Virus record (IMG/VR): IMGVR_UViG_3300006193_000026
Location: 1-34,502 of that record
Length of the DNA stretch: 34,502 nt
Reading direction: 5' to 3' (one strand)
From: a virus
Taxonomy: Duplodnaviria > Caudoviricetes
Below the pieces are notes generated by a model. That model was not told where the DNA came from. It made no database searches and worked only from the letters and a program-made list of their open reading frames with translations. The translations under genes and the position numbers were made by a program. Below, in pieces: positions 2,399 to 34,502 of this stretch. Numbering within the stretch: the first letter of the stretch is position 1; every line of letters begins with the position of its first letter.

Positions 2399-2654
2399 TA
2401 ATACTGGAGAAAGTAAATTACAGACATTGTTAAAAAAGCAAGAAAGTTTAATTAAAAAGAAAATTTTTGCTCAAGAACAAATTAAGGGTATGAAAGCCTT
2501 AACTGTAATTTATGGAACAGAAATTATTAAAATAGAAGATGAATTATTGAAAATAACCAGGAGGAAAGAATATGTTGAAAGAACAGCTAAACAATTTAGA
2601 GACGCTGGGACCAATAGGAATAAAGATAAGAACTCAAATGGAAATGTTGTTTGA
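2358..2654 (+). CDS. Hypothetical coiled-coil protein
   Basis: ORF track 2349..2654; the ATG at 2358 follows GAGGA and is the likelier start. Confidence 0.6.
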   Translation: MIKSKIDYLKLIVDNTGESKLQTLLKKQESLIKKKIFAQEQIKGMKALTVIYGTEIIKIEDELLKITRRKEYVERTAKQFRDAGTNRNKDKNSNGNVV

Positions 2655-4860
2655 TAAATTATCTAATAAAACTGATAGTAATAGAAAACCAGATGTTGTA
2701 ACAGTTATTAATAATAATAAAATTGACTTTAATATTGCAATACAATTATCACATTCAATGATAGCTACTGGTGTATCTGAAGGTCAGAACTTAACACAAT
2801 TAGCAATTGCCATTGGTGATAGAATATTTAGTTATTATAATATTAGTAAAAAATCATCAATTGCTTTAAAGTTAGGTGTATTTATTATCAATTCATATAG
2901 CATATTATTTATGGTGGTAGTAAAATTAATAAGAGAATATTATCAACATAATAAAGTTAAAACTGTTTATAAAGTTTATGCTGGTAAAAATAGAAATGAT
3001 CTTAGAAAATTAGTAAAAGAGTTTGCTGAAGTTTCAGATCCTTACAAACCGTTATTAACTAAGGCTCCAGATTGGAAGTTTGGTACAGTAACAATAGACA
3101 ATGGTGAAGAAATTAAATTGATTAAAAATGTTAATAAAGATACATTAGCAAAAATTAATGAATATAATACTCCTATTGTTTTAAATGCAGTAAATAAAAA
3201 ACAAGCCATAGGTTATTATGTTAAACCTGAAGTATTTAATGTTTATAAATGGGCATTAAAAACTAACCAAGATTGTTTTGAACATAATTCTGTTAAAACA
3301 ATTTCTAAAGAAAGAGCATTGGCTAAGAAAAGAGAGGCTGAGCAAGTTTTAAATGCAACTAAGCCTTATGTTGGTACTGTATTTTATCAACAATATCAAG
3401 CAGATAACAGGGGAAGGTTATATCCATTGTCAGCTTATTTGAATGAATTAAACTCAGATAATGCTAAGGGTATGCTTACATTTGCAGAAGGTAAACCACT
3501 TGGCTTAACTGGATTAAATCAGTTATATCATCATATAGCTAATATGTATGGTGAGGATAAATTGCCCCATGAAGACAAAGTTAAATTTGTAGAAAATAAT
3601 TATTATGACTTTGTTAAATGTGGTAAGGATCCTTATACAGCTAAACGTTGGATGGAAGCAGAAGAGCCTTTTCAATTCTTATCATCTGTTATTGAATTAG
3701 CGGAACTTGATAAACATTTTGTTGATATTAAAAGTGTTGAAACTTTTGTATCTCATACAATTTGTTACAGAGATGGTTCTAATAATGGCTTACAATGGTT
3801 GTTTAGTTTAGCTAAGGATGATAAAAATGCTCATTTGGTTAATGTAGCTAAAAGTAATGATAATAAACCAGGTGATATGTATTCCCATGTAGCAGTTTCT
3901 GTTGTGGATAAAATGCATAAAGAAGCAGAAAAAGCAGATGACTTAGCTTTGGAATATTACAATTTATATTTTAAAGGCATAGAAAAACTTAGGAATAAGT
4001 TTAGAATTGCTGAATTAAATAGTGATACAAAAGCAGAGTTATATAAAAAACTAATAAGATGGTATCAAAGAAGATATAAAAGTCAACTTAAATTAACTGA
4101 TATTATTTATTGGGATAAGTCTAAGTTTACTGTTAAGGAGTGGAGAAAAATAGTAAAAAGAAATGTTATGACTTATGGTTATAGCGCAACAAAGCAAGGT
4201 ATGGGTGAGCAAATAATACAAGATACTAGAGATATAGATAATGTATATTTGAGTAACAAACAACACAGTGCGGCTAGGGCTTTGGGCGCTCTTGTTTATT
4301 TAACTATTGAACAAGAATTTCCTATGGTTTCTGAAACTATGAAGTTGTTTAAAGACAATTGTGAAAAATATATGAAGGATACTGGAAGACAATATTCTCA
4401 TAAAACATTAATTAGCAATTTTCCTTTTACACAAAAATATGTTAAATATAAAAGAGGTATTGTGTTTGTTCACGATGGTTTATATGTACAAAATGCAGAT
4501 AAATCTTACAAATGGGATTATCAATTAGAGTTAATTATAAAAACAGAACTAGCTGTACAAAACATTAGTAAAGCTAAGGCTGGAATAAGTCCTAATACAA
4601 TTCATAATTTGGACTCATTACATTTAATGCTTGTAATTGATAAATGCAACTTTGATATAGTATCAGCACATGATAGTTATGGTTCACATGCTTGTAATGT
4701 AGTTGATATGCAAAAATGTATCAGGGAGCAATTTAAATATATCATAGACCAGGATCCTCTTGAACATATATTAAAAGAAACAGGAAACTTGGTACCTATG
4801 ATTCAACGTGGCAATTTAGATAGCAGTGAAATATTGCAATCTGAATTTGCCTTTGCTTAA
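2572..4860 (+). CDS. T7/T3-family single-subunit DNA-directed RNA polymerase
   Basis: DNRGRLY; motif A RDGSNNGLQ; motif B RKIVKRNVMTYGY; ISPNTIHNLD; motif C AHDSYG; C-terminus EFAFA like T7 RNAP (FAFA). AGGAGG SD upstream. Confidence 0.97.
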   Translation: MLKEQLNNLETLGPIGIKIRTQMEMLFDKLSNKTDSNRKPDVVTVINNNKIDFNIAIQLSHSMIATGVSEGQNLTQLAIAIGDRIFSYYNISKKSSIALKLGVFIINSYSILFMVVVKLIREYYQHNKVKTVYKVYAGKNRNDLRKLVKEFAEVSDPYKPLLTKAPDWKFGTVTIDNGEEIKLIKNVNKDTLAKINEYNTPIVLNAVNKKQAIGYYVKPEVFNVYKWALKTNQDCFEHNSVKTISKERALAKKREAEQVLNATKPYVGTVFYQQYQADNRGRLYPLSAYLNELNSDNAKGMLTFAEGKPLGLTGLNQLYHHIANMYGEDKLPHEDKVKFVENNYYDFVKCGKDPYTAKRWMEAEEPFQFLSSVIELAELDKHFVDIKSVETFVSHTICYRDGSNNGLQWLFSLAKDDKNAHLVNVAKSNDNKPGDMYSHVAVSVVDKMHKEAEKADDLALEYYNLYFKGIEKLRNKFRIAELNSDTKAELYKKLIRWYQRRYKSQLKLTDIIYWDKSKFTVKEWRKIVKRNVMTYGYSATKQGMGEQIIQDTRDIDNVYLSNKQHSAARALGALVYLTIEQEFPMVSETMKLFKDNCEKYMKDTGRQYSHKTLISNFPFTQKYVKYKRGIVFVHDGLYVQNADKSYKWDYQLELIIKTELAVQNISKAKAGISPNTIHNLDSLHLMLVIDKCNFDIVSAHDSYGSHACNVVDMQKCIREQFKYIIDQDPLEHILKETGNLVPMIQRGNLDSSEILQSEFAFA

Positions 4861-11291: not shown

Positions 11292-13046
11292 ATGATAATA
11301 GAAGATAGAGATAATTTACTGACAGATTTCGGTAAAACTACACTAAAGGATAGGTATTTGTTACCTGAAGAAAACAGTCCACAAGAAGCATTTTTAAGAG
11401 CGGCTAAAGCCTTTTCTGACAATGATGAAATGGCAAAAAGAATTTACGATTATTCATCTAAATTATGGTTTATGTATTCAACGCCGATATTAAGTAATGG
11501 TGGAACAGAGCGAGGTATGCCTATATCATGCTTTTTAAATTATGTAGGTGATAGCCGAGAAGGCTTAACTGATCATTATACTGAAAATGCTTGGTTAACA
11601 TCTATTGGTGGCGGCATTGGCGGCTACTGGGGAGATATAAGAAGTGATGGAACTAAAACATCAGGTGGTTCTCAATCATCTGGAACTATTCCATTTTTAA
11701 AAGTAGTAGATGCAGAAATTATGGCATTTAGTCAAGGTAAAACTAGAAGAGGTAGTTATGCCGCATATATGAATGTATCACACCCTGAAATATTAGAATT
11801 TTTAGATATAAGAAAACCATCAGGTGGAGATATACATAGAAAATGTTTAAATTTACATCATGGAATAAATATTACTAATGATTTTATGGAACTTATAGAA
11901 AAATGTATAGCTGAACCTACTTATGATGATACTTGGAATTTAATAGATCCTCATACTATGGAAACAGTAAGAACTGTATCAGCTAGAGATTTGTGGCTTA
12001 AAATATTAGAAAATAGAGTAGCTACTGGTGAGCCATATATTTGTTTTATTGATCATATCAATGATGCATTACCCGAAACACAAAAGAAATTAGGTTTGTC
12101 TGTTAAACATTCAAATTTATGTACTGAAATTACTTTACCTACTGATGAAGATAGAACAGCAGTATGTTGTCTATCATCTGTTAATTTAGAAAAATATGAT
12201 GAATGGAAAAATGATAAATTATTTATATCTGATGTAGTTAGATTTTTAGATAATACATTACAAAGTTTTATAGATAATGCTCCTGAACATGTAGCTAGAG
12301 CTAAATATAGTGCAACTCAAGAAAGATCTATTGGATTGGGTGCTATGGGTTTTCATGCTTATTTACAAAAAAATAATATTGTATTTGAATCTGTTTTAGC
12401 AAAATCTAAAAACAAGCAAATGTTTAAACATATAAAAACAGAAGCTGTTAAAGAATCTCAAAGGTTAGCTATAAAAAGAGGTGAAGCTCCGGATATGGAA
12501 GGCACTGGAATGAGAAATGCTCATTTACTTGCTGTTGCTCCTAATGCTTCAAGTTCAATTATTTGTGGGACTACTTCTCCAAGTGTTGAACCTTTTAGAG
12601 CTAATGCTTATGTTCAAAAGACTATGTCAGGTTCTTTTCTTGTTAAAAATAAATTTTTAGAAAAATTATTAGAAACAAAAGGTATTAACAACGAAAAAAC
12701 ATGGACTTCAATCCTTGGTAATCGTGGTTCAGTATTACACATTAAGGAATTATCAACTTGGGAAAAAGATGTATTTAAAACTGCTATTGAAATTAACCAA
12801 AGTTGGGTTATTGAACATGCAGCTGATAGACAAGAATTTATTTGTCAAGGTCAATCATTAAATATATTTGTACCTGCTGATGTTAATATTAAAGAGTTAC
12901 ATGATACGCATATGTTAGCTTGGAAGAAAAAATTAAAAACTTTATATTACTGTAGAAGTGAAGCAATTAAACGTGCTGAACTAGTAAGTAAAAAAGTTGA
13001 AAGAACAATAATACCTGAAGCTGAATGTTTAGCTTGTGAAGGTTAA
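11292..13046 (+). CDS. nrdA: Class I ribonucleotide reductase alpha subunit, without ATP cone
   Basis: PISCFL, SNLCTEI, VCCLSS, APNASSS, TLYY and C-terminal CLACEG. Confidence 0.97.
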   Translation: MIIEDRDNLLTDFGKTTLKDRYLLPEENSPQEAFLRAAKAFSDNDEMAKRIYDYSSKLWFMYSTPILSNGGTERGMPISCFLNYVGDSREGLTDHYTENAWLTSIGGGIGGYWGDIRSDGTKTSGGSQSSGTIPFLKVVDAEIMAFSQGKTRRGSYAAYMNVSHPEILEFLDIRKPSGGDIHRKCLNLHHGINITNDFMELIEKCIAEPTYDDTWNLIDPHTMETVRTVSARDLWLKILENRVATGEPYICFIDHINDALPETQKKLGLSVKHSNLCTEITLPTDEDRTAVCCLSSVNLEKYDEWKNDKLFISDVVRFLDNTLQSFIDNAPEHVARAKYSATQERSIGLGAMGFHAYLQKNNIVFESVLAKSKNKQMFKHIKTEAVKESQRLAIKRGEAPDMEGTGMRNAHLLAVAPNASSSIICGTTSPSVEPFRANAYVQKTMSGSFLVKNKFLEKLLETKGINNEKTWTSILGNRGSVLHIKELSTWEKDVFKTAIEINQSWVIEHAADRQEFICQGQSLNIFVPADVNIKELHDTHMLAWKKKLKTLYYCRSEAIKRAELVSKKVERTIIPEAECLACEG

Positions 13047-13063
13047 TAGAAAGATTAAAAAAA

Positions 13064-14017
13064 ATGAGTTTATTTGATACTAGAAATCATTATAAGCCCT
13101 TCGATTATGGTTGGGCGTTTGAGGCATATGAAACAATGCAGAAGATGCATTGGCTTCCTAGTGAAGTACCATTGCATGAAGATGTAAGGGATTGGAATGA
13201 AAGATTAACTGAAGAAGAAAAAAATTTAATATCTCAAATATTAAAATTCTTTACTCAAGGTGATGTAGATATAGCACAAGCTTATTTGGATAGATATATT
13301 CCAAAGTTTAAATCTCCCGAAGTAAGAATGATGCTTGCATCTTTTGTTGCCTCTGAAGCTAATCATGTTCATAGTTATTCATTATTAAATGATACTATTG
13401 GTGAAACACAATTAACTAATTTTAAAGCATTTCAAGAATATAAAGAAATGTCTAATAAACATGCATACCTTTTTAAATCTAAGGGTAAAGGCACTCAAGG
13501 ATTAATAAGAGATATTGCTTGTTTTTCTGCATTTGGAGAAGGTTTACAATTATTTGCATCATTTGTAATGCTTTTAAACTTTCAAAGATTTGGAAAAATG
13601 AAAGGTATGTGTCAAATTGTTACTTGGTCTATTAGAGATGAAACACATCATGTTGAATCAATGATTAAATTATTTCATACATTAGTAAAAGAAAATCCTG
13701 AAGTATGGACAGAAGAATTTAAAGCTGAATTATATCAAACATGTAGAGATATGGTTGAATTAGAAGATAAATTTATTGACTTAGCTTTTGAAATGGGTGG
13801 TATCCGTGGATTAAACCCTGAAGAAGTTAAACAATATATAAGGTATATTGCTGATAAAAGATTATTACAATTATCTTTAAAACCAAATTATAAAATTAAA
13901 GAAAACCCGTTAAGTTGGCTTGATTGGGTTATTAATGGTGTTGAACATACTAATTTCTTTGAAAATAGAGCTACTGAATATAGTAAAGGTTCAATAACTG
14001 GTAATTTGTGGGGATAA
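13064..14017 (+). CDS. nrdB: Class I ribonucleotide reductase beta subunit
   Basis: Metal ligands FTQGD, EANHVHSY (with radical Tyr), GEG and RDETHH; C-terminal NFFENRATEY. Confidence 0.97.
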   Translation: MSLFDTRNHYKPFDYGWAFEAYETMQKMHWLPSEVPLHEDVRDWNERLTEEEKNLISQILKFFTQGDVDIAQAYLDRYIPKFKSPEVRMMLASFVASEANHVHSYSLLNDTIGETQLTNFKAFQEYKEMSNKHAYLFKSKGKGTQGLIRDIACFSAFGEGLQLFASFVMLLNFQRFGKMKGMCQIVTWSIRDETHHVESMIKLFHTLVKENPEVWTEEFKAELYQTCRDMVELEDKFIDLAFEMGGIRGLNPEEVKQYIRYIADKRLLQLSLKPNYKIKENPLSWLDWVINGVEHTNFFENRATEYSKGSITGNLWG

Positions 14018-19469: not shown

Positions 19470-19781
19470 ATGGATAATAAACCATTTAATAAATACTATG
19501 TGCTAAGAATAACTTCTTTGCATATAAAGAAGTCTGTAGATACATCAATAAGAAAAACTTATGACAGATTAAAAGATGTAGATAATAAAATAGAAGTCTT
19601 TGAAACATTAGATGTTTTACACAAAATAAGAAAAATGATGGAAGACTTTGAATCGCATAATAAACATTTATATATAAAACCCTTACAGGAGATAAAAGAT
19701 GAAACACATAAAGATAGTGGAGATAACAAAGAAAATACCATTTCTGGAACAGGAAGTGGAGATAAAACAACTAACAGTTAA
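19470..19781 (+). CDS. Hypothetical protein (103 aa)
   Basis: AGGA SD; overlaps the tail chaperone gene by 83 nt. Confidence 0.65.
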   Translation: MDNKPFNKYYVLRITSLHIKKSVDTSIRKTYDRLKDVDNKIEVFETLDVLHKIRKMMEDFESHNKHLYIKPLQEIKDETHKDSGDNKENTISGTGSGDKTTNS

Positions 19782-20016
19782 AGGTATTAAGGATCTACAA
19801 AAAGCGTTAGATACTAGTAAAACCGATGATGTTACAGGTGTAAAAACCTTAAGTGCTATATTTAAATGTACTGTTGTAGATGCTCAAGATATGACTGAAA
19901 AGGATTTTGAAAAGTTTCCTATTCAAGCATTAACTAAATTATCAGCAGATATTATGCAATATAATGGGTTAGGTGCCACAGACGAAAAAGGTGGTGACTT
20001 GGGGAAGAAGATTTAG
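19699..20016 (+). CDS. Tail assembly chaperone (lambda G-like)
   Basis: EVEIKQLTV motif; AGGAG SD; lies between tube and tape measure; ends DLGKKI. Confidence 0.8.
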   Translation: MKHIKIVEITKKIPFLEQEVEIKQLTVKGIKDLQKALDTSKTDDVTGVKTLSAIFKCTVVDAQDMTEKDFEKFPIQALTKLSADIMQYNGLGATDEKGGDLGKKI

Positions 20017-20333
20017 CAGACTATGAATTGGCTTTTCAATTAGGTGTTACATTAGATTATATTTATAATATGTCCAGCAAAGAATATATGGGTTGGATAA
20101 AATATTTTGATAAAAGACCATATGGTTGGAGAGATGATCACAGAGCTGCTATATTAGCACAAACTACTTATCAAGGTACTAAACCACTTAAAGTAAATGA
20201 TTTATTTCCTTCAATAAGAATAATGGCTAATACTAATATAAAAAAGGATATAAAATTAGAAACTGGTTTTAATGAATTAAAAAGCATAGCTAGAAAAAAT
20301 AATATATCTTTTATGGAAAATAAAAAATCTTAG
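19998..20333 (+). CDS. Tail assembly chaperone extension (lambda T-like), probably made by -1 frameshift
   Basis: The -1 frame is open from 19998 (LGEEDLADYELAFQLG...MSSKEYMGWIKYF...RDDHRAA) and overlaps the end of the chaperone; no good start of its own. Confidence 0.7.
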   Translation, partial: LGEEDLADYELAFQLGVTLDYIYNMSSKEYMGWIKYFDKRPYGWRDDHRAAILAQTTYQGTKPLKVNDLFPSIRIMANTNIKKDIKLETGFNELKSIARKNNISFMENKKS

Positions 20334-24276: not shown

Positions 24277-24714
24277 ATGATAAGAATTGGAGAATACAAA
24301 GACGTTGAACAAGGTGTAAAATTACTTGAACAACACAGAATGGAATTTGATTTTGGTCAATTTAAAGAAGACAATACAGAGTATTATACAGGTTTAATGG
24401 AAGCAATAGCTAAAGATAAAACTGCAGTAATATCAGAAAATGAAAATGGTATAATTGATGGTGTATTATTAGGAATGAAAATACCTAATTTATTAAATCC
24501 ACAATTATGTCAATTACATATTTTATTAACTTGGGTTCACCCTAATAAAAGGGGATCCTCTGTATTTTATAGGATGAATAAAATGTTAGAAAAAGAAATT
24601 AAAAATCATAAAGAAGTTAAGGATATAATTTTTTATTCTATTCCAGAAACTAATATTAATTTTAATAAGTTGAATTATAAAGAATTTCAATTAATGTACA
24701 AAAAGGAAATTTAA
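24277..24714 (+). CDS. GNAT-fold protein within the tail module
   Basis: MIRIG N-terminus and TWVHPNKRGSSV, resembling GNAT motif A. Confidence 0.6.
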   Translation: MIRIGEYKDVEQGVKLLEQHRMEFDFGQFKEDNTEYYTGLMEAIAKDKTAVISENENGIIDGVLLGMKIPNLLNPQLCQLHILLTWVHPNKRGSSVFYRMNKMLEKEIKNHKEVKDIIFYSIPETNINFNKLNYKEFQLMYKKEI

Positions 24715-24716
24715 CT

Positions 24717-27290
24717 ATGGCAGCAGCCGCACCTATTATTGCAGCAGTAATGGCACCAACCATACAGGGAATGGTACTTCGATTTGCATTGTCAGTAGCA
24801 GTTTCATATATTACAAATAAATTATTTGCTCCAGATGTACCTGCCGGTCCAGGTGCAGCAGATCCAGCTCCAGATCCAGGAGTTAGACAAAGAATAGCTT
24901 CTAATCCTAATAATAAATTACCTGTTCTTTATGGACAAAATAAAATATTTGGTTCAATTACATTTGCTGATATTACATCTGATAATCAAACAATGGCGTT
25001 TATTGTTAGTTTATGTGAAGGACCTATTCAAACTATTGGTCAAGTATGGTGGGACAATTTTAAATTAACTTTAGATAGTAATGGTAATGTAACAAATGCA
25101 ACTGATGGTGAAGGAAATACTGATGATTTTTTAAATGGAAATTTAACAGTTAAAAAATTTAAAGCTGGTGGTAGATGTTCTCCTATGGAATCATTTTCTA
25201 CTAAATGGAATACAAATGCAGTAAATAGAACAATGCCCAATGTTGCATATTTATATGTAGAATTAAAATATAATAGAGATGAATCTGTAACTGGTTTAAC
25301 ACCTAAATTAGGTGCAGAAGTTGAAGGTAAATTAATTAGAACATTTAGTGGATCTACTTTATCTAGTGGTACTTCATATTCAAATAATCCATCTGAATGT
25401 TTATTAGATTATTTAACTAATACTGTTTATGGTTGTGGTGATGTAATTTCTGATACTGATGTTGATTTAACAAAATTTGCTTCTCATAAAACATTTTGTG
25501 ATACTTTAATTACACATACAGATAAAGATGGAAATTCAACAACAGCTAAAAGATATAAAACAAATGGAGCTATAAATACATTTGATGAAAGAGATTTAAG
25601 TATTTCTGATTTAGTTAATTGTTCGCAAGGTATATTTTCTTATCATTTAGGTAAATTTCAAGTTATTTCTGATACTATAGGATCATCCGTAATGTCATTT
25701 AATGCTGATAATATGTATGGTGATTTTACAGTAGTTAATGATGGTTTTAATAGTTCATTAAATAAAATGAATATTTCATTTTCTTCTTATGATGAAAAAT
25801 ATCAAGATGATCAAGTATTTTTAAATTTAGCTGCTAATCAAAAATCATTTAATGAACCAGAATTAGTTCAAGATACAAGATTTAAATTTATAAATAATAA
25901 TATTATGGCTCAAAGAGTTGGTAATGTTATTATTAAAAGATCAAGAGATAATTTAATTGTTTCATTTAAAACAGACACAAAGGCTTTAGCATTACAAGTT
26001 ACAGATATAATAGCAGTTTCAAATAATACTTATGGTATTACAAATAAATTATTTAAAATTAATTCTATTACTGAAACAGATATGGGTAATGAAGGTATTG
26101 CAGGTTATTTAATTACAGCTCAAGAATATAATGCTGATGCATATACAGAAGAAGCATTAACAGAATTTCAATTAGCTCCAAATACAAATTTACCTAATCC
26201 TAGAAATTTTGGAGCAATTACTAACTTAACAACAATTAGTAATAATACAGATTCTTCTACTCCATTTGTAGAATTACAATGGACTGTACCTACTGGATTA
26301 ACAGAAACATTTGAAATATATGTTGGAGATAATATTAATAATACTGTTGCTCAAAGATTGTTTAATATTTCATTTAGAACATCTACAGGTCCATTTGCTG
26401 AAAATACAATAGTTAAACATAAAGTATTTGATTTAGATTTTACAGATACGTTAGTATTTTGGGTAAGACCTATTAACCAATTTGCTAGAGGTGGTTTTTC
26501 TAATGCTTATGACTTTGGTGTATTTAGACCAGGGGCTGGTGGTATTACTTCTGGTGTTTCTGGAATTATTGTTGATCCTAATGATTTAAAAAATCCTTAT
26601 GGTGTTGTAAATAGATTTACTCAACTTAAATATGGAGATAGCACTACTGGTTTAAATATAAGAGATGGTTTTACTGATATTGATTCTGTTCAACAAATAG
26701 GTTATGCTGGTTCAGCAATTAATACAATTACTAGAACTGGTGGAACTGATGGCTCAGGGTCTATAACATTTCCTACAAATTTTAATGCTGGTGTAGCAAC
26801 AACGGAAGAACAAGAATTAAGTTTTACAGGAACAAGAGGTAATATAACACAAAAAGAATTATTACATATTAATTTAGCTGATGATATAAAAAATGATACA
26901 GTTAGAAAAACAATATCAAATATTGCAATTTGGGGATCAACTGGTTTTTTAACTGTAAATTCATCAAGTAATAGTGTTAAGGTTAATGATATTATAGAAT
27001 TAGCTTCATTAGTAGTTGCTGGAGTATCTTCTGGTTTTGGAAGATCAGTATGTATAGGTACTTTTTATGCATATGTAATGTCTGATACTGAATTATTTTC
27101 ATTTAAATTAGCTTTAGGTACTTGGACATTTTTTGCTAGAACAAATTCAGGTGGAGTTCAAAATTATAATGTTTCTGATATGGGAGATGATGTATTGCTT
27201 TATAACTCATCTACTAATGAAGGACAAATATGGAATGCCTTTTTAATACCATTAACATTTGGTGCTACAGGTGGAGGTCAATTTAACTAA
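24717..27290 (+). CDS. Tail tip / central fibre protein (lambda J-like), ends [11 protein letters not shown]
   Basis: LPVLYG, LCEGPI, NNPSECLLDYLTN..YG and LQVTDII motifs; FnIII-like LQWTVP...FWVRPIN. Confidence 0.88.
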   Translation: MAAAAPIIAAVMAPTIQGMVLRFALSVAVSYITNKLFAPDVPAGPGAADPAPDPGVRQRIASNPNNKLPVLYGQNKIFGSITFADITSDNQTMAFIVSLCEGPIQTIGQVWWDNFKLTLDSNGNVTNATDGEGNTDDFLNGNLTVKKFKAGGRCSPMESFSTKWNTNAVNRTMPNVAYLYVELKYNRDESVTGLTPKLGAEVEGKLIRTFSGSTLSSGTSYSNNPSECLLDYLTNTVYGCGDVISDTDVDLTKFASHKTFCDTLITHTDKDGNSTTAKRYKTNGAINTFDERDLSISDLVNCSQGIFSYHLGKFQVISDTIGSSVMSFNADNMYGDFTVVNDGFNSSLNKMNISFSSYDEKYQDDQVFLNLAANQKSFNEPELVQDTRFKFINNNIMAQRVGNVIIKRSRDNLIVSFKTDTKALALQVTDIIAVSNNTYGITNKLFKINSITETDMGNEGIAGYLITAQEYNADAYTEEALTEFQLAPNTNLPNPRNFGAITNLTTISNNTDSSTPFVELQWTVPTGLTETFEIYVGDNINNTVAQRLFNISFRTSTGPFAENTIVKHKVFDLDFTDTLVFWVRPINQFARGGFSNAYDFGVFRPGAGGITSGVSGIIVDPNDLKNPYGVVNRFTQLKYGDSTTGLNIRDGFTDIDSVQQIGYAGSAINTITRTGGTDGSGSITFPTNFNAGVATTEEQELSFTGTRGNITQKELLHINLADDIKNDTVRKTISNIAIWGSTGFLTVNSSSNSVKVNDIIELASLVVAGVSSGFGRSVCIGTFYAYVMSDTELFSFKLALGTWTFFARTNSGGVQNYNVSDMGDDVLLYNSSTNEGQIWNAFLIPLTFGATGGGQFN

Positions 27291-27817
27291 TGCCAATATT
27301 ACAAACATTACCAACTTTAGATATTTCTAATAACATTGTAGATACAAATGAAAATATTATTGTTTGGTACAATGGAACTAAAATAAGATATTATCACAGA
27401 TTTGAAAAAGTATTTAGAGATGTTGAAACTATTAGTGGTATTTTATCAATTAAACTTTTAAATGATAATAATATAAAAATAACTACAAGTACAAAAGTTA
27501 GAGAATTAATTTTAACAAGACCAGCTACAACAAATACATATACAATTACTTTAGATAGTAATTATGATACTAATATTGATCCATTGGCAACATGGACATT
27601 ATCTTTAACAGATTATGGTATTTTAACTGATAGTATGTCTTCAACTGTTGCAGGTACTGCTACGGCTATAGCTTTAGCAATTAATAATTTAACTGGTTTT
27701 AGTTCTACTTCTAATAGTAATATAATTACTTATACTAATACTGGTTCACAAGTTGTACAAACAAGTTCAATAGATTTTAGTTTATCTACTGCAACTGGTG
27801 GTGGTCAATTTAATTAA
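27290..27817 (+). CDS. Tail-tip associated protein, ends TATGGGQFN
   Basis: TAATG-coupled; Thr/Ser/Asn-rich and beta-rich; TATAIALAIN domain. Confidence 0.75.
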   Translation: MPILQTLPTLDISNNIVDTNENIIVWYNGTKIRYYHRFEKVFRDVETISGILSIKLLNDNNIKITTSTKVRELILTRPATTNTYTITLDSNYDTNIDPLATWTLSLTDYGILTDSMSSTVAGTATAIALAINNLTGFSSTSNSNIITYTNTGSQVVQTSSIDFSLSTATGGGQFN

Positions 27818-27835
27818 TAATAAAGGAAATTAAAA

Positions 27836-29971
27836 ATGTCAATAAGTTCTGTTTATTCAAATTCAGGAACATTTGCAACAGCCGATATTATTACAGCTAC
27901 CATGAAAAATAGTTTAAATAATATTCATGTAATAGATGATACTTCTGTTGTTGCAGTTAATACTACAAATGCACAAGTATATACTAATAGTGGTAGTGGA
28001 TATGTATCACAAATTACTCATGCAAGTACAAGTGATGTTGTTGGTTTTAGTAAAGAATTTATTTTAGGAACTAATTTATATATTTATAATACTACTCAAC
28101 CTGTTTCAAATACAAGATGGAATACAGGTACAGATACAAAATATTCAGTAAGTTTAGGATCTTTAGGATCTATAACTAATAATACATTTTCAAATAATAT
28201 TGGTGTTATTGATGCATTAAATGAAATTAGAACAGCAATATTAGGTTTAAGTATAAGTGGATTATCAGTTTCATTACCAACTTATGTATCAGATATAAAT
28301 CCAGATACTAGTGTTATTGATTTTTCAGGTTATGGTATAATAATTAATACAGGTTCATCAACAAATGAAAATACATCTTTTTCAATTAATGATGTTTATG
28401 GTGATGGTTCAAATATTATTTATAATTATGAATTTGAAACAGATGGTGCTGGAACTTCACAATCAACTACAATATCTTTAACTGAGCCAGATGGAACAGG
28501 AACTTATACATTAAGTATTGCCGCTGATGCTACAGATGATAATCAATCAAATAGTATTGGAACAGATTTAATTGCATTAGTAAATAATAATGTAGAATCT
28601 CCTAATAATTATACTGCTACATATAATACTTCTTCTAAGAAAATTACATTTACATCAGTAAGTACATTTGATTCAGTTGCTAGTGAATTATGGACTGCTA
28701 CAGTAAATAATAATTCTGTTAGTGGTGTTAATGAAGGTAATATTATTTTTGGTACATCTACTATGACAAGAACAGGTATACTTGGTTCATCATATACTAT
28801 TACAGCACCTAATTTATTTACTAAAACTGTAAATGGTTTACCCCTATTTAGTAAAGTTACATTTACTGGTGGAACAGAAACAGCATTTAGTGATAATATA
28901 AATGCAACTGCTGCGGCTCTCGAATTTAAAAATGCATTAAATACTTCTTTAAATGGTTTTATGACTGCAACAATAGATTCAGGTGATTCAAAAATAGTAA
29001 ACTATACTACATCTATTCAAGATGATATTGGATTAAACTTAGTTTTTTCTAATGCATCAATTAATAAAACTATTACTCAAGGTATACTAGGTACTACACA
29101 AACAAATATTAATAATGCTGGTAAAACTAATATTCAGGTATTTAAACCTGGAAATGTTAGTTCTGATTATAATAAAAACTTCGTTGGTTTTGTACCAACT
29201 TTAACTGGTGCTATAAATACACCAGCGGATATAATATCAAATATTAATACAACAATAACTGATTGGACTATTGAAAAAGATCAACCAGTAAATAATCAAA
29301 TTAGGTTTACTTCAGTTGATAGTCAATATGTCAATAATGTATATAAATTAAATGTAACAAATACTACGGCTACTGGAACAACAACAGGTGATTTTTCAAC
29401 AGGTTTAGGTAATGCTACGATTACTACTATTGGTTCATCGGTTCCAGATTATTATGGTTTAAGATCTGTAACCTTAGCTAATAAAGATGTTTTTTCAAGT
29501 ACACCAACAGATTATTCTTGGTTTGAAACTACTAAAAATAATTTAAATACTATATTTCCAGGATATAAAGTAGATGCTTTAAAAACTCCAGAATTTGCTT
29601 TTGATGGTATAACAGGAACTACTCCTAGATTAGTAGATGGATTTTTTGCTATAGGTGCTAATGCAGGTGGTCAATATGTTATTGATACTGATGCTGTTAC
29701 ACTTACTGAAATAGCTAATATACCTGTTGATACAACTACTAATACAATATTTGGATCTGAAATTATTTATTTTTCTACTAAATTATATTTAGCATATAGA
29801 GTAAATAATGATAGTGAAATTACTGCTTTGTCTTTAGGAGGAAGTAATTCAGGTGCAACAATTTATACCAATAATGGAACTACTTATTCAATAGTAGATA
29901 GTAATAATGCTGTATTAATTGCCAATTATATATATAAATGGAATGGTACTGCATGGGTCAAAGAAACTTAA
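27836..29971 (+). CDS. Tail-tip associated protein (711 aa) with repeated domains
   Basis: AAGGA SD; T/S/N-rich; several helix-plus-strand repeats; ends YKWNGTAWVKET. Confidence 0.8.
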   Translation: MSISSVYSNSGTFATADIITATMKNSLNNIHVIDDTSVVAVNTTNAQVYTNSGSGYVSQITHASTSDVVGFSKEFILGTNLYIYNTTQPVSNTRWNTGTDTKYSVSLGSLGSITNNTFSNNIGVIDALNEIRTAILGLSISGLSVSLPTYVSDINPDTSVIDFSGYGIIINTGSSTNENTSFSINDVYGDGSNIIYNYEFETDGAGTSQSTTISLTEPDGTGTYTLSIAADATDDNQSNSIGTDLIALVNNNVESPNNYTATYNTSSKKITFTSVSTFDSVASELWTATVNNNSVSGVNEGNIIFGTSTMTRTGILGSSYTITAPNLFTKTVNGLPLFSKVTFTGGTETAFSDNINATAAALEFKNALNTSLNGFMTATIDSGDSKIVNYTTSIQDDIGLNLVFSNASINKTITQGILGTTQTNINNAGKTNIQVFKPGNVSSDYNKNFVGFVPTLTGAINTPADIISNINTTITDWTIEKDQPVNNQIRFTSVDSQYVNNVYKLNVTNTTATGTTTGDFSTGLGNATITTIGSSVPDYYGLRSVTLANKDVFSSTPTDYSWFETTKNNLNTIFPGYKVDALKTPEFAFDGITGTTPRLVDGFFAIGANAGGQYVIDTDAVTLTEIANIPVDTTTNTIFGSEIIYFSTKLYLAYRVNNDSEITALSLGGSNSGATIYTNNGTTYSIVDSNNAVLIANYIYKWNGTAWVKET

Positions 29972-30032: not shown

Positions 30033-30482
30033 ATGAGAATATCAAACATACAAAATTACTTAGGAGGAGCAGATAATATTATTGCTCGAGAAATATCCGA
30101 AGGTAATCAATTTTTACTATCAATAGAAGATGGCACTATAGATTTTAGTGCTTCTGCTACAACTTTTGATATAAAGGCTGATTTATTTGAAGCAAACGTT
30201 ACAAGAAAGAGAGGATCTATTACAATTGATTCATTAACAGCAGTTGGTGCTGCAACACAACATACTTATACAAAAGCAGAATCGGTATTTAATACTACTG
30301 TTGCTGGTAAATTTGAGTTGTTGGTTCCAAGTACAATATTATCAGATCAGGGAAGTTATACTTCTACACCTGATGATGCATCTCCATATATCGTGGTTAT
30401 GAAAGTACAATGGGCTGCAGGTACTCCCTCAGTTAAAAATTCAATTAGGTTCGTATTTGTAATAAGATACCAACCTCAGTAA
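30033..30482 (+). CDS. Fibre adaptor / BppU-like baseplate protein (possible)
   Basis: AGGAG SD; beta-rich with GKFELLVP; precedes the fibre gene. Confidence 0.55.
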   Translation: MRISNIQNYLGGADNIIAREISEGNQFLLSIEDGTIDFSASATTFDIKADLFEANVTRKRGSITIDSLTAVGAATQHTYTKAESVFNTTVAGKFELLVPSTILSDQGSYTSTPDDASPYIVVMKVQWAAGTPSVKNSIRFVFVIRYQPQ

Positions 30483-30495
30483 GGAATAAATAATT

Positions 30496-33400
30496 ATGAC
30501 AATTAAAATAGATGGAATAACTTCAACTATAACCGTTTCAAAACAAACAGGACCAATAGGTCCAACAGGTCCGCAAGGATCAATAGGTAATACTGGGTCA
30601 CAAGGATCACAGGGTATTCAAGGATCCCAAGGATTACTAGGACCAACTGGTAACACAGGTAGTAAAGGTAATGATGGTATACAAGGTCCAACAGGATCAC
30701 AAGGTCCTACTGGTACAACTGGTGCTACTGGTGCTGCAGGTGCTAGTGGTGTAGTTAGTGATGCTACAGTATTTCCAATTATTGATAGCCGTGTAACTAA
30801 AAATTATGTTAACAATTTAAATGTAGATGCCGATACTTTAGACAATCTTAATTCTACTTCTTTTGAACAAATATCTAGAAAAAATATTAACAATGGCTAT
30901 GCAGGATTAGATGCTGCTGGTAAAGTTGCTGTTGCACAATTACCTAGTTATGTAGATGATGTAGAAGAATATGCTAATTTTGCAGGTTTTCCAGCTACTG
31001 GAGAAGCAGGTAAAATTTATGTGGCTATTGATACTGGTGATGTTTATAGATGGGCAGGAAGTGCTTATGTACAAATTAATGACGCAGTTACATCTGCTGA
31101 TCAAGCTACAAAATTAGCTACAGCCAGAGACATTATATTAACAGGTCCAATTACTGGAAGTGCTAGTTTTGATGGAACTACTAATGCTTCTATTACAACT
31201 TCATTAAATATATCTTCTAAGTCAACTTCTGATTTATCTGAAGGAAGCAATTTATATTATACTGATGCAAGATTTGATACTAGATTAGCTTCTAAAAATA
31301 CAGCTAATTTAAGTGAAGGAACAAATCTTTATCATACTGATGCAAGAGTTCAAACAGTTATTAATACAAACTCAGCTGGTTTTATTACACCAAGTTCATC
31401 AAGTGCACTTACAAATAAAACTGGTAATATAAGTCAATGGACAAATGATGCTGGATATATAACAGCTGAAACTGATTCACAAACCTTATCATTTAGTACA
31501 CCTAATTTAACTATTTCAAATGGTAATGCTGTTGATCTTAGTTCATTAACTACTAATTTTATTACAGCATCAAGTACAGATAATTTAACAAACAAAACTT
31601 TAACAGATGCTGTTGCAGTAACAAATTCTGTAACTGGTGAAATAGTTCCAGGTAAGATTGGTGGAACTAATTTTACAAATAGTTTATTAGTTGGTCATGC
31701 AACTACTGGAACTTTAAATAATGCAACACACAATACAGGTATTGGAATTGATGCTTTAAATTCAATTACTTCTGGAGACTTCAATACAGCTTTGGGCTCT
31801 AATGCACTAACTGCTTTAGATACTGGTCAAAGAAATATTGGAATTGGTTTTTTTGCTGGTGTTAAAATACAAGGTGGAGATCACAATCTTGCTATAGGTC
31901 ATGCTTCTTTAGCAGAAGCTGTTGATGCTGTAAGAAACACAGCAGTAGGTTATCAGTCTGGTAATAAAACAACTGGAAATTTCAATACTTATCATGGCTA
32001 TCAAGCTGGATTGAATATAGCAAATGCAAACTATAATGTAAATTTAGGTTGGACATCTGGAGATAATATTACAAGCGGTTCTGGAAATGTTTCTATTGGA
32101 GCAGCAGCAGACCCATCTTCAGCAACTGGTAATAGACAATTAGTTATTTCAGGATATGATGGAACAACTACAACTACTTGGATTAGCGGAGATAGTGACG
32201 GTAAACTTACAATGACAGATGGTGAAATTATTCCAGGTAAGATTGGTGGTACTAATTTTGCAAACAGTTTATTAATTGGTCATGCAGATTCAGGAACTTT
32301 AAATAATGCTCAAAGTAATACTGGAGTTGGTATTGGTGCTTTAGATGCCTTAACTTCTGGTGATAATAATACAGTCATGGGATTTGCGGCAGGTGACTCA
32401 ATAACAACTGGTGGACAAAATACATATTTGGGTACTCAATCTGGTACTAATTCAAATGGAAATGAAAATGTTGGAGTTGGACATCAAACTTTAATTGGCG
32501 CTAGTGGAATTAGAAATACAGTAATAGGTATGAAAGCTGGGCATGTTATTTCTGGAGATTATAATATTTGTGCGGGATGGAAATCTGGTGATAATATTAC
32601 AAGTGGGGATGGTAACGTAATTATTGGTGGTGTTAATGCTACTTCAGCTACAGGAGATAGACAATTAAAAATTGCTGGATATGATGGTTCAACAACTACA
32701 ACTTGGATATCAGGTGATAGTTCAGGTAATTTAACAACTACTGGTGATATAGATCTAAATGGTAATAAAGTATTATTTGCTAATATGTATTCTGCTATAG
32801 GAGATTTACCAAGTGCTTCTACTTATCATGGTATGTTTGCTCATGTTCATGGAACAGGTAAAGGTTATTTTGCACATGCTGGTAATTGGATAGAATTAGC
32901 CAATAAATCAACTACATTAGCAGGTTATGGAATTACAGATGGTTACACAGATGCAAAAGTTGATGCTAGAATAGCTGCTGGAGGTGCTAATCCAACAATT
33001 AGTTCTATTAGTCCAAGTACAATAATAGGTAATGTTGTATCTACAATTACGGTTACAGGTTCAAATTTTGCTGTTGGAACACAAGTAGAATTTATAAATA
33101 CTGCTACAGGTATATGGTATCCTGCTATTACAATTGTATATAATAATAGTACATCATTAACTGTTAAAATTAATTTAACTATTGATGCTCAATATAGAAT
33201 GAGAGTTGAAAATGGAGACGGTAGAGCAGTCATATCAACTAGTAATATTTTAAATGTATCTGATGCACCTACATGGTCAACAAGTGCAGGTAGTTTAGGT
33301 TCTTTTGCTGGAAACTTTTCTGGTACAATTGCAAGTCTTTCTGCTTCTTCAGATAGTGCTGTAACATTTAGTGAAGTTGGATCTAATTTAACAGGAGCTA

Positions 33401-33576
33401 ATGTTACTATGACATCTGCTGGTGTTTTAAGTACAACTGATTTTGGTGGTTCATCAACAAGTGCAACAACTTATAATTTTACAATTAGAGTAACCGATGC
33501 TGAAGGCCAAACGGCTGACAGATCATTTAGCTTTGCATCTACATTTGGTGCTACAGGCGGAGGACAGTTCAATTAA
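30496..33576 (+). CDS. Mosaic tail fibre (collagen, beta-roll repeats, Ig-like C-terminus), ends [11 protein letters not shown]
   Basis: 22 G-X-Y triplets; LSEG.NLY.TDAR twice; duplicated NT..G repeat module; PTISSISP (IPT/TIG-like) and [19 protein letters not shown] (Ig/cadherin-like). Confidence 0.9.
30550..30747 (+). repeat. Collagen-like (Gly-X-Y)22
   Basis: GPI GPT GPQ ... GAT GAA GAS, uninterrupted. Confidence 0.95.
31636..32727 (+). repeat. Internal tandem duplication in the fibre gene
   Basis: Units at 31636-32202 and 32221-32727, both running [19 protein letters not shown] ... [15 protein letters not shown]. Confidence 0.9.
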
Positions 33577-33668
33577 TGAGTAAATTAAATCTTAAATTAA
33601 AAAAGGAAATAAAAAATATAATGAATAAAATTAAAAAAATAATTAACGAAATAATGGGGGTTAACTAA
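33576..33668 (+). CDS. Short basic ORF (30 aa) coupled on both sides
   Basis: Not in the ORF track. [30 protein letters not shown]; TAATG overlaps at both ends. Confidence 0.45.
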   Translation: MSKLNLKLKKEIKNIMNKIKKIINEIMGVN

Positions 33669-34502
33669 TGGCTACTGCATTACAAAGAACTTTTGGAACA
33701 CCAACAAATAATAAAATATTTACATTATCACTTTGGTTAAAAAGAGCAGCAGGTGATATTAATAATACTATAACTTTAGTTCAAGGTGGTGGTTCTTCAA
33801 GACCCACATCAGAGCTTGTTTTAAATAGTGAAGCAATAGCATTATCTCAATATGATGGTTTAAATTATAATTATAATGTTAGAGCATATTATAAAGCAAG
33901 AGATCCTTCGGCTTGGTATCATATTGTTTATACTTTTGATAGTACACAATCTACAGCAAGTGATAGGGTTAAATTTTATGTAAATGGAGTTATACAAAAT
34001 TATAATATGCAAACCACAGCTTATCCAAGTTTAAATTATGTTCCTGCCATGAATGGTGCTACTAGTCATGCTATTGGTGGTTCTGTATTTGGTAGTTTTT
34101 CAGCAAATGCTTTATGTCTAATGTCTCATATACATTTTACAGATGGTACAGCTTATGACCCAACAGCATTTGGAGAAACAGATAGTACAACTGGAGAATG
34201 GAAAATTAAAACTGATGTTAGTGTAACTTATGGAAACAATGGTTTCTTTATTTTAAAAGATGGTAATTCAGTAACAGACCAATCTGGCAAAGGTAATAAC
34301 TGGACAGTTGGTGCAGGTACACTTACAAAAACAGAAGATTCTCCAAGCAATGTTTTTTGTACAATGAACGCATTATCAAAATCTTTAACAAATGTAGTTT
34401 TATCAAAAGGTAATACAGTAGTTAGAAATGACTCAAGTGCTAATGGCAATGTATTAGGAACGATTGCTTTAGGTAATGGTAAATATTATTGGGAAAATTA
34501 CA
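33668..34502 (+). CDS. LamG/concanavalin A-like lectin-domain tail protein (truncated by window end)
   Basis: Not in the ORF track because it has no stop in the window. MATALQRTFG...FTLSLWLKR, RDPSAWYHIVYTFDST...RVKFYVNG; GKYYWE (SPRY-like) at the edge. Confidence 0.85.
   Translation, partial: MATALQRTFGTPTNNKIFTLSLWLKRAAGDINNTITLVQGGGSSRPTSELVLNSEAIALSQYDGLNYNYNVRAYYKARDPSAWYHIVYTFDSTQSTASDRVKFYVNGVIQNYNMQTTAYPSLNYVPAMNGATSHAIGGSVFGSFSANALCLMSHIHFTDGTAYDPTAFGETDSTTGEWKIKTDVSVTYGNNGFFILKDGNSVTDQSGKGNNWTVGAGTLTKTEDSPSNVFCTMNALSKSLTNVVLSKGNTVVRNDSSANGNVLGTIALGNGKYYWENY

Follow-up and report, generated by a model that had tools for sequence, protein, structure and literature searches.

Why should a phage tail tip be encoded by three consecutive genes, two of which end in the same short peptide? 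This question is raised by the IMG/VR virus record IMGVR_UViG_3300006193_000026 (Duplodnaviria; Caudoviricetes), whose 34,502 nucleotides (hereafter the window) were analysed over their full length. A J-like central tail protein of 857 amino acids (aa), hereafter J, is followed by open reading frames (ORFs) of 175 and 711 aa (Table 1); J and the 175-aa ORF, but not the 711-aa ORF, terminate in a ten-residue tag ending in GGGQFN, and a third copy of this tag ends the collagen tail fibre encoded further downstream, ahead of a gene for a LamG-SPRY protein. We consider it probable that the three ORFs derive from one protein through two cuts in a beta-propeller, and that the tags dock the LamG-SPRY protein on the tail tip.

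One-gene, two-gene and three-gene forms of the tail tip

P0001, an untagged homologue of 1611 aa encoded by one gene, is colinear with all three ORFs: J (residues 14-843, 63% identity), the 175-aa ORF (residues 4-85, 38%) and the 711-aa ORF (residues 23-710, 50%) align to it in that order. Further untagged one-gene homologues are P0002 (2007 aa), P0010 (1723 aa) and P0009 (2408 aa), the last of which is likewise continuous through junction 1, where J meets the 175-aa ORF. P0014 was dropped as a homologue, its match being an unrelated repeat. The existence of these four fused homologues, all without tags, bears out the proposal of a preliminary description of the window that the three ORFs represent one ancestral protein, and also its proposal that the new C-termini acquired the same tag, which is carried by J and the 175-aa ORF and is absent from the one-gene forms. 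That the chain was cut twice was only partly right: two cuts were found, but the second was not a plain one, as it came with a new domain of about 85 residues ahead of the tag. A two-gene state is represented by L056/L057, in which a tagged J is followed by a 780-aa protein composed of residues 1-73 of the 175-aa ORF joined to the 711-aa ORF.

The tag-plus-stop pattern occurs three times in the window (ends at 27290, 27817 and 33576) and in none of 100 shuffles. Both junctions are spanned by 73 loci, corresponding to 28 distinct sequences, of which 27 have the three-gene layout and the 28th is the two-gene form, and contigs from runs of two other studies cross both junctions without any difference. 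Sequencing or assembly errors, or read-through of the stops, were rejected on the strength of these independent contigs and of the layout shared by the distinct relatives, and the spacing at the junctions, which ranges from -1 to +26 bases across loci, speaks against them as well; with no support beyond scattered breaks elsewhere in a few loci (L028, L041, L211), this explanation has a practically negligible probability. RNA contigs (X15) were set aside, as they cannot show expression. The three-gene locus was also seen inside a genome bin titled Campylobacteraceae (L366), into which a phage contig had probably been mis-binned.

On a tree of the J hub, the 20 tagged rows fell on one side of a branch and the four one-gene rows on the other (Shimodaira-Hasegawa-like approximate likelihood ratio test, SH-aLRT, 98), and with the cultured Pelagibacter phage Kolga and L220 included the tagged rows again stood on one side (SH-aLRT 97); both trees were built quickly, and their outer branches, those of the one-gene forms among them, are long. 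A single tagged clade, with untagged one-gene forms outside it, makes fission the likely direction of change, and gene fission of one ancestral tail-tip protein appears to us highly probable. The reverse course, in which three ancestral genes merged in some lineages with loss of their tags, is highly improbable. It can draw on the long branches of the one-gene forms and on L056, which is nested in the three-gene clade on the tree of the N-terminal (hub) part of J, so that one re-fusion may have occurred; it has to contend with four divergent one-gene lineages outside the single tagged clade, with cuts that fall within a predicted domain, with trees of the distal parts, on which L056 stands at the base of the tagged group, and with a monophyly of the three-gene forms that is not rejected (approximately unbiased test, p-AU 0.48 and 0.085). 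The two-gene form may be either an intermediate or a re-fusion.

Predicted position of the cuts and the two half-motifs

J comprises a hub, an FnIII-like part, the first half of a motif considered below, the first blades of the predicted propeller and the tag. In the 711-aa ORF the last part of this propeller, at about residues 14-83, is followed by four alpha/beta repeats, the second half of the motif and a C-terminal domain. Two AlphaFold2 models of P0001 residues 613-1611 were of low quality as a whole (mean predicted local distance difference test, pLDDT, 55 and 64) but confident over the stretch spanning the cuts. The first matched beta-propellers over model residues of about 125-375 (best Z 13.2, root-mean-square deviation, rmsd, 4.4, 239 aligned) and the second over residues 220-373 (best Z 13.9, rmsd 2.9, 142 aligned), and four-stranded blades recur along an arc that takes in the two cuts; the match is to the generic fold, at 9-15% identity.

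When the strands of the models are set against the alignment, the last blade strand of J is a strand c, and the matching strand d opens the 175-aa ORF, whose residues 1-76 correspond to model residues 226-296 (pLDDT 82-92 by blocks). Two blades on, strand c is in turn the last propeller strand of the 175-aa ORF, strand d being provided by the 711-aa ORF. Both cuts are thus predicted at the same c-d hairpin of blades two apart, and each downstream chain would close the blade of its neighbour. Propeller rings are usually closed in this manner, so that the propeller would be likely to reassemble from the three chains. The cuts had been placed in the domain that carries the motif; according to these models of the fused P0001 they lie instead inside the propeller, within the insert.

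The added domain of the 175-aa ORF (about residues 77-163) was absent from the one-gene and two-gene forms (P0001 and L056 compared); the alpha/beta repeats that the 711-aa ORF contains resemble it only weakly (E 0.1-0.4), and it is likely a spacer. The four repeats themselves gave no fold match among the matches listed, which were filled by propellers, and a structure search of the Atlas returned unnamed clusters only. The repeats (window 28130-29350) come with returning strands, and outgoing strands occur in J residues 655-720, which would suggest further nested domains.

The motif had been put forward as one of phage tail proteins, and its halves, QLKYGDSTTGLNIRD in J and DYYGLRS...SSTPTDYSWFE in the 711-aa ORF, were both located as previously described (26622-26666 and 29447-29527). 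They are kept in all four one-gene homologues, where they are separated by 807 (P0001), 1191 (P0002), 1587 (P0009) and 896 (P0010) residues. Conservation of the halves at such distances fits a variable insert inside one domain, and agrees in this respect with the nested insertion that had been proposed, with the difference that the cuts are predicted inside the propeller of the insert and not in the motif domain.

The module of phage DT1 reads as the preliminary description gave it and corresponds to the '3-beta domain' of PMC9437275, part of which describes such modules as a C-terminal extension of the central tail protein (Tal) of Streptococcus thermophilus phages. The motif order is similar in the two (aromatic-x-x-x-Y-A/G-D … Y-x-G … S-x-x-P-x-D-Y-x-W); the streptococcal modules, as presented there, are about 50-60 contiguous residues between collagen linkers, whereas the halves described here lie on different genes or, where the protein is encoded by one gene, at a distance of 807-1587 residues, and the match is weak. 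The best match of a profile built from 10 streptococcal modules was the second half-motif, at a non-significant E of 0.075. In the reverse direction, a profile of the first half landed at module positions 2-3 in 10 of 12 distinct best hits and one of the second half on the matching half of the module in 11 of 13 distinct hits, each with E above 0.2; these hits are related and non-independent, and modules make up 10% of the residues. A contiguous version of the motif was not found in 93 near-length homologues (all at least 70% identical), 13 profile-library hits and the J relatives, a weak negative. On balance we lean towards a pairing of the two half-motifs.

The tag and its predicted LamG-SPRY acceptor

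Where does the tag come from? When 18 of the 64 parts of a viral collection were scanned with a pattern that fixed the last six residues, 130 matches were obtained, in 121 viral loci; 106 ended an Ig-like domain of fibre type, 12 hit J (one a 15-residue stub), nine hit the 175-aa ORF and three hit nothing. The gene following the 106 tagged fibre ends was a recognised LamG in 94 cases and an ORF without match in seven, no ORF being found in five. The overlap TAATG, in which stop and start are joined, was present at 100 of 107 fibre-type junctions and at the J junction of 56 of 83 loci (not de-duplicated). The tag is thus normally the end of a fibre gene just ahead of a LamG gene, and was read directly on the fibre of HTVC103P and HTVC011P.

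The LamG protein of the window matches PF13385 with 37.5 bits (cut-off 27.6, profile positions 15-124), and SPRY was seen in a full-length homologue. LamG proteins of this kind are headless: they begin MA(S/N)TYL.RT, at the second strand of intact homologues, and all 53 that were aligned begin at the strand after the extra one. Intact homologues from cultured phages carry SLRF(N/R/D) a few residues before the headless start strand in five of five read, and in four of the five an aromatic residue stands nine places before the end of the extra strand, as in the tag.

A complex was predicted for the LamG-SPRY protein and residues 78-175 of the 175-aa protein, both from the relative L183. It scored 0.85, against 0.29 for the best of three controls, a mark that 116 of 157 solved pairs attain, but only 2 of 215 mismatched ones; the runs agreed in at least 88% of contacts and the partner had a pLDDT of at least 73. 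The predicted interface consists of tag residues 164-175 only, between LamG residues 152-159 and 222-233 and beside LamG residues 2-5. A split domain may pass such a test by its likeness to solved folds, so that the complex supports binding and does not show it. The usual place of the tag at a fibre end before a headless LamG, the equivalent strand in intact LamG and the predicted fit together argue that the tag is not a by-product, and it would very likely serve as a donor strand that fills the slot in LamG (donor-strand complementation). To the preliminary description this adds a traceable origin of the tag, the fibre end, and a predicted partner, the headless LamG-SPRY. Carbohydrate or receptor binding by LamG would be expected from its family and gene position.

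Several observations bear on whether the tags of J and the 175-aa ORF are used. A headless LamG was present in five of 10 records with a tagged J, and the remaining five stop short of the position at which it would be expected; it was found in none of 12 records with an untagged J, including the complete Kolga genome. The two tags might nevertheless be passengers, the fission being real and the tags stemming from recombination with a fibre junction that gave a stop and a coupled start. The J and fibre tags are identical in 28 of the 33 bases of their DNA, and a stretch of 35 bases at the J junction can be aligned with fibre/lectin junctions from other phages, a likeness that copying could maintain without selection. 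What makes this unlikely is that QFN is the terminus in 89 of 93 homologues of J and in 22 of 22 distinct ends of the 175-aa ORF, next to upstream residues that vary, even in the absence of the TAATG overlap, and that in L057 (21.8 kb, record 66% complete) the fibre is untagged, a headless lectin is present and J bears the only tagged end found. Slightly less likely still is another partner, the tag docking on or signalling to the DUF7483 protein, the 149-aa protein encoded after the 711-aa ORF, a chaperone, or the split propeller as an extra strand. The DUF7483 protein does follow LamG-SPRY at these loci, and intact forms have the two fused, but the tag equals, in place and pattern, the strand absent from LamG, the model places the end of the tag beside LamG residues 2-5, and the fused propeller needs no tag. 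Docking on LamG stays the reading that we prefer.

A number of points weigh against the overall reading of fission and docking. The one-gene forms are each represented by one sequence only, and no DNA context was found for P0002 or the others. The blades of J are part of the propeller match in the first model and hardly in the second, and the alignment used for the first had 13 residues of the 175-aa rows misplaced. Neither model gives the half-motifs a pLDDT of 50, and the match of the halves to the 3-beta modules is not significant. The complex test is passable by likeness to solved LamG folds, and the pair that was folded has tag 2 of L183, in place of J's tag or the pair encoded in the window. 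In the J and 175-aa tags, conservation of the aromatic residue at position -10 is poor; the 12 records with an untagged J are fragments for the most part, and their J has C-termini of other types; G004 has a completeness of 66%; and sugar binding by LamG is assumed from the family name.

If the reading is right, the first cut may have been made in one step, by a short tag-stop-start piece copied from a fibre/lectin junction; once inserted in the c-d loop, such a copy would bring the tag, the stop and a coupled start all together, and later exchange between tags could yield the same DNA likeness. The long insert, propeller included, would hang from the 3-beta-like domain, whose halves would also join J to the third chain. 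The gain would be more lectin heads per virion, on the tail axis, J being assumed from its family to be a trimer on that axis. With somewhat less than even confidence, we suggest for SAR11-type phages in general that a tag-stop-start cassette of about 35 bases lands in a surface loop, splits the gene into chains that reassemble and adds a socket for an interchangeable lectin head, fission thereby tuning receptor-binding valency. Recognition of SAR11 by pelagiphages is largely open; were the suggestion true, the common fibre/lectin gene pair would be one split domain, the lectin a swappable head, and the number and place of lectins on the virion would be set by which genes end in the ten-residue tag. 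The locus would be a rare series, with one-, two- and three-gene states and a benefit of fission that is plausible, and would also give a short natural peptide/protein coupling pair.

In chaperone-usher pili, whose polymerising Ig-fold subunits carry a donor as well as an acceptor, a strand-deficient fold is completed by the terminal strand of another chain (donor-strand complementation). The likeness here is a fold short of one beta-strand, which would be supplied by the terminus of another chain. The tag differs in that the donor is C-terminal, the acceptor is LamG (ConA-like), and donor and acceptor are on different proteins, so that they would not polymerise; there is also no evident chaperone, and several unrelated proteins have come to carry the donor. 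The LamG-SPRY acceptor ends in STKGLNL without a tag, and the pair would work like the pili without being a member. In the split nozzle gp39/gp42 of Pseudomonas podophage A1002, according to part of PMC13730344, a tail beta-propeller is shared, missing strands are mutual and fibre docking sites are added. That case is a two-chain podophage nozzle seen by cryo-electron microscopy, and the present one a predicted three-chain siphophage J-like tip, which, unlike A1002 as described there, has a portable tag at each cut and known one-gene relatives. A literature search (listings of open-licence papers, without supplements) returned nothing relevant on the tag or the mechanism.

Many cultured pelagiphages (HTVC103P, HTVC011P, Greip, Skadi and others) have the same Ig-like fibre end and an adjacent LamG-SPRY gene, annotated only as tail fibre and lectin ('lectin/SPRY domain'). 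In the two of them in which the tag was read, HTVC103P and HTVC011P, it is on the fibre, whereas in the lineage of the window it is on three proteins. The hypervariable region of Skadi holds, according to part of PMC10504331, a lectin-domain gene, which may be the LamG-SPRY gene. Variants of the tagged and headless ends were also seen. In HTVC011P (L224 3100-3500, KC465900), the Ig-like end and tag are out of frame with the annotated coding sequence of the tail fibre, through a sequencing error or a frameshift; in L041 (14152-14904) the third tag sits on a separate Ig-like protein of 250 aa; and in HTVC200P (H87) three places match the tagged Ig-like domain and two match LamG-SPRY. P0012, a protein of 154 aa, is a headless LamG start joined to the C-terminus of the 711-aa protein, an assembly chimera or a natural fusion.

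Genomic setting

The record is marine, siphophage-like and 73% complete by the estimate of its source, and includes genes for terminase, portal, capsid, tail tube, distal tail and an L-like protein. J shares hub homology with Lambda J/Tal-like proteins and follows the distal tail and L-like genes, its upstream neighbours matching phrog_1302 and phrog_2048; the match of its hub to PF13550 is below the cut-off of that family. From J onwards the order is J, 175-aa, 711-aa, 149-aa, collagen fibre and LamG, the last truncated by the end of the window (Table 1).

Table 1. Features of the tail-tip locus and of the adjoining fibre and lectin genes (window coordinates).
Feature	Coordinates	Strand	Remarks
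J-like central tail protein, 857 aa	24717..27290	+	phrog_31, E 1e-40; 63% identity to P0001 11-835; 50% to Kolga gp15
First half of 3-beta-like motif, J residues 636-650	26622..26666	+	kept in all four one-gene homologues
Propeller share of J (predicted), ends after strand c of blade	26949..27245 (approximate)	+	model residues 130-224 of P0001 613-1611; lower confidence in second model
Tag 1, ten residues and stop, C-terminus of J	27258..27290	+	overlaps next start as TAATG
175-aa ORF	27290-27817	+	overlaps J stop as TAATG
175-aa ORF residues 1-76: strand d of last blade of J, one full blade, three strands of next (predicted)	27290..27517	+	38% identity to P0001 838-919, E 2e-15
175-aa ORF added domain (about residues 77-163)	27518..27778	+	no match in P0001 or L056
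Tag 2 (…ATGGGQFN, stop), C-terminus of 175-aa ORF	27779..27817	+	residues 164-175 of homologue are the whole predicted LamG interface
711-aa ORF	27836..29971	+	50% identity to P0001 923-1611; untagged
Second half of 3-beta-like motif, 711-aa ORF residues 538-564	29447..29527	+	kept in all four one-gene homologues
149-aa gene	30033-30482		no family match
Collagen tail fibre, 1026 aa, ends in Ig-like domain and tag 3 (33544-33576)	30496..33576	+	Pfam Collagen; TIG below cut-off
Headless LamG-SPRY protein, predicted tag acceptor	33668..34502 (cut by window end)	+	PF13385, E 3e-9

The phage of the window is related to viruses of SAR11 bacteria, and by its tail tip the closest cultured relative is Kolga. 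Kolga gp15 (EXVC016S, MT375529; in part of PMC8163748) shares half of the hub residues of J and the same gene order up to the 149-aa gene and fibre, and differs in having another C-terminal extension, no tag and no headless LamG gene. In J proteins of the Kolga type (L223 8906-13075; L334-L358), some 270-300 residues are inserted near residue 210 of the hub, and the C-terminal extensions are of several unrelated kinds; from these inserts and extensions, the tail tip appears highly modular.

Relatives with and without the tag, Kolga (gp16) among them, all keep the 149-aa gene between the tail tip and the fibre, and it is a possible fibre adaptor. An acetyltransferase-like gene (phrog_1249, window 24277-24714) is located between the L-like gene and J. 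A T7-like single-subunit RNA polymerase (window 2572-4860; phrog_414, E 8e-101) is encoded alongside the siphophage tail module, and ribonucleotide reductase genes (11292-14017) are located between the portal and head genes. The region after the tail tube gene is a frequent site of tail assembly chaperones with a programmed frameshift; small overlapping ORFs were found there, at window 19470-20333.

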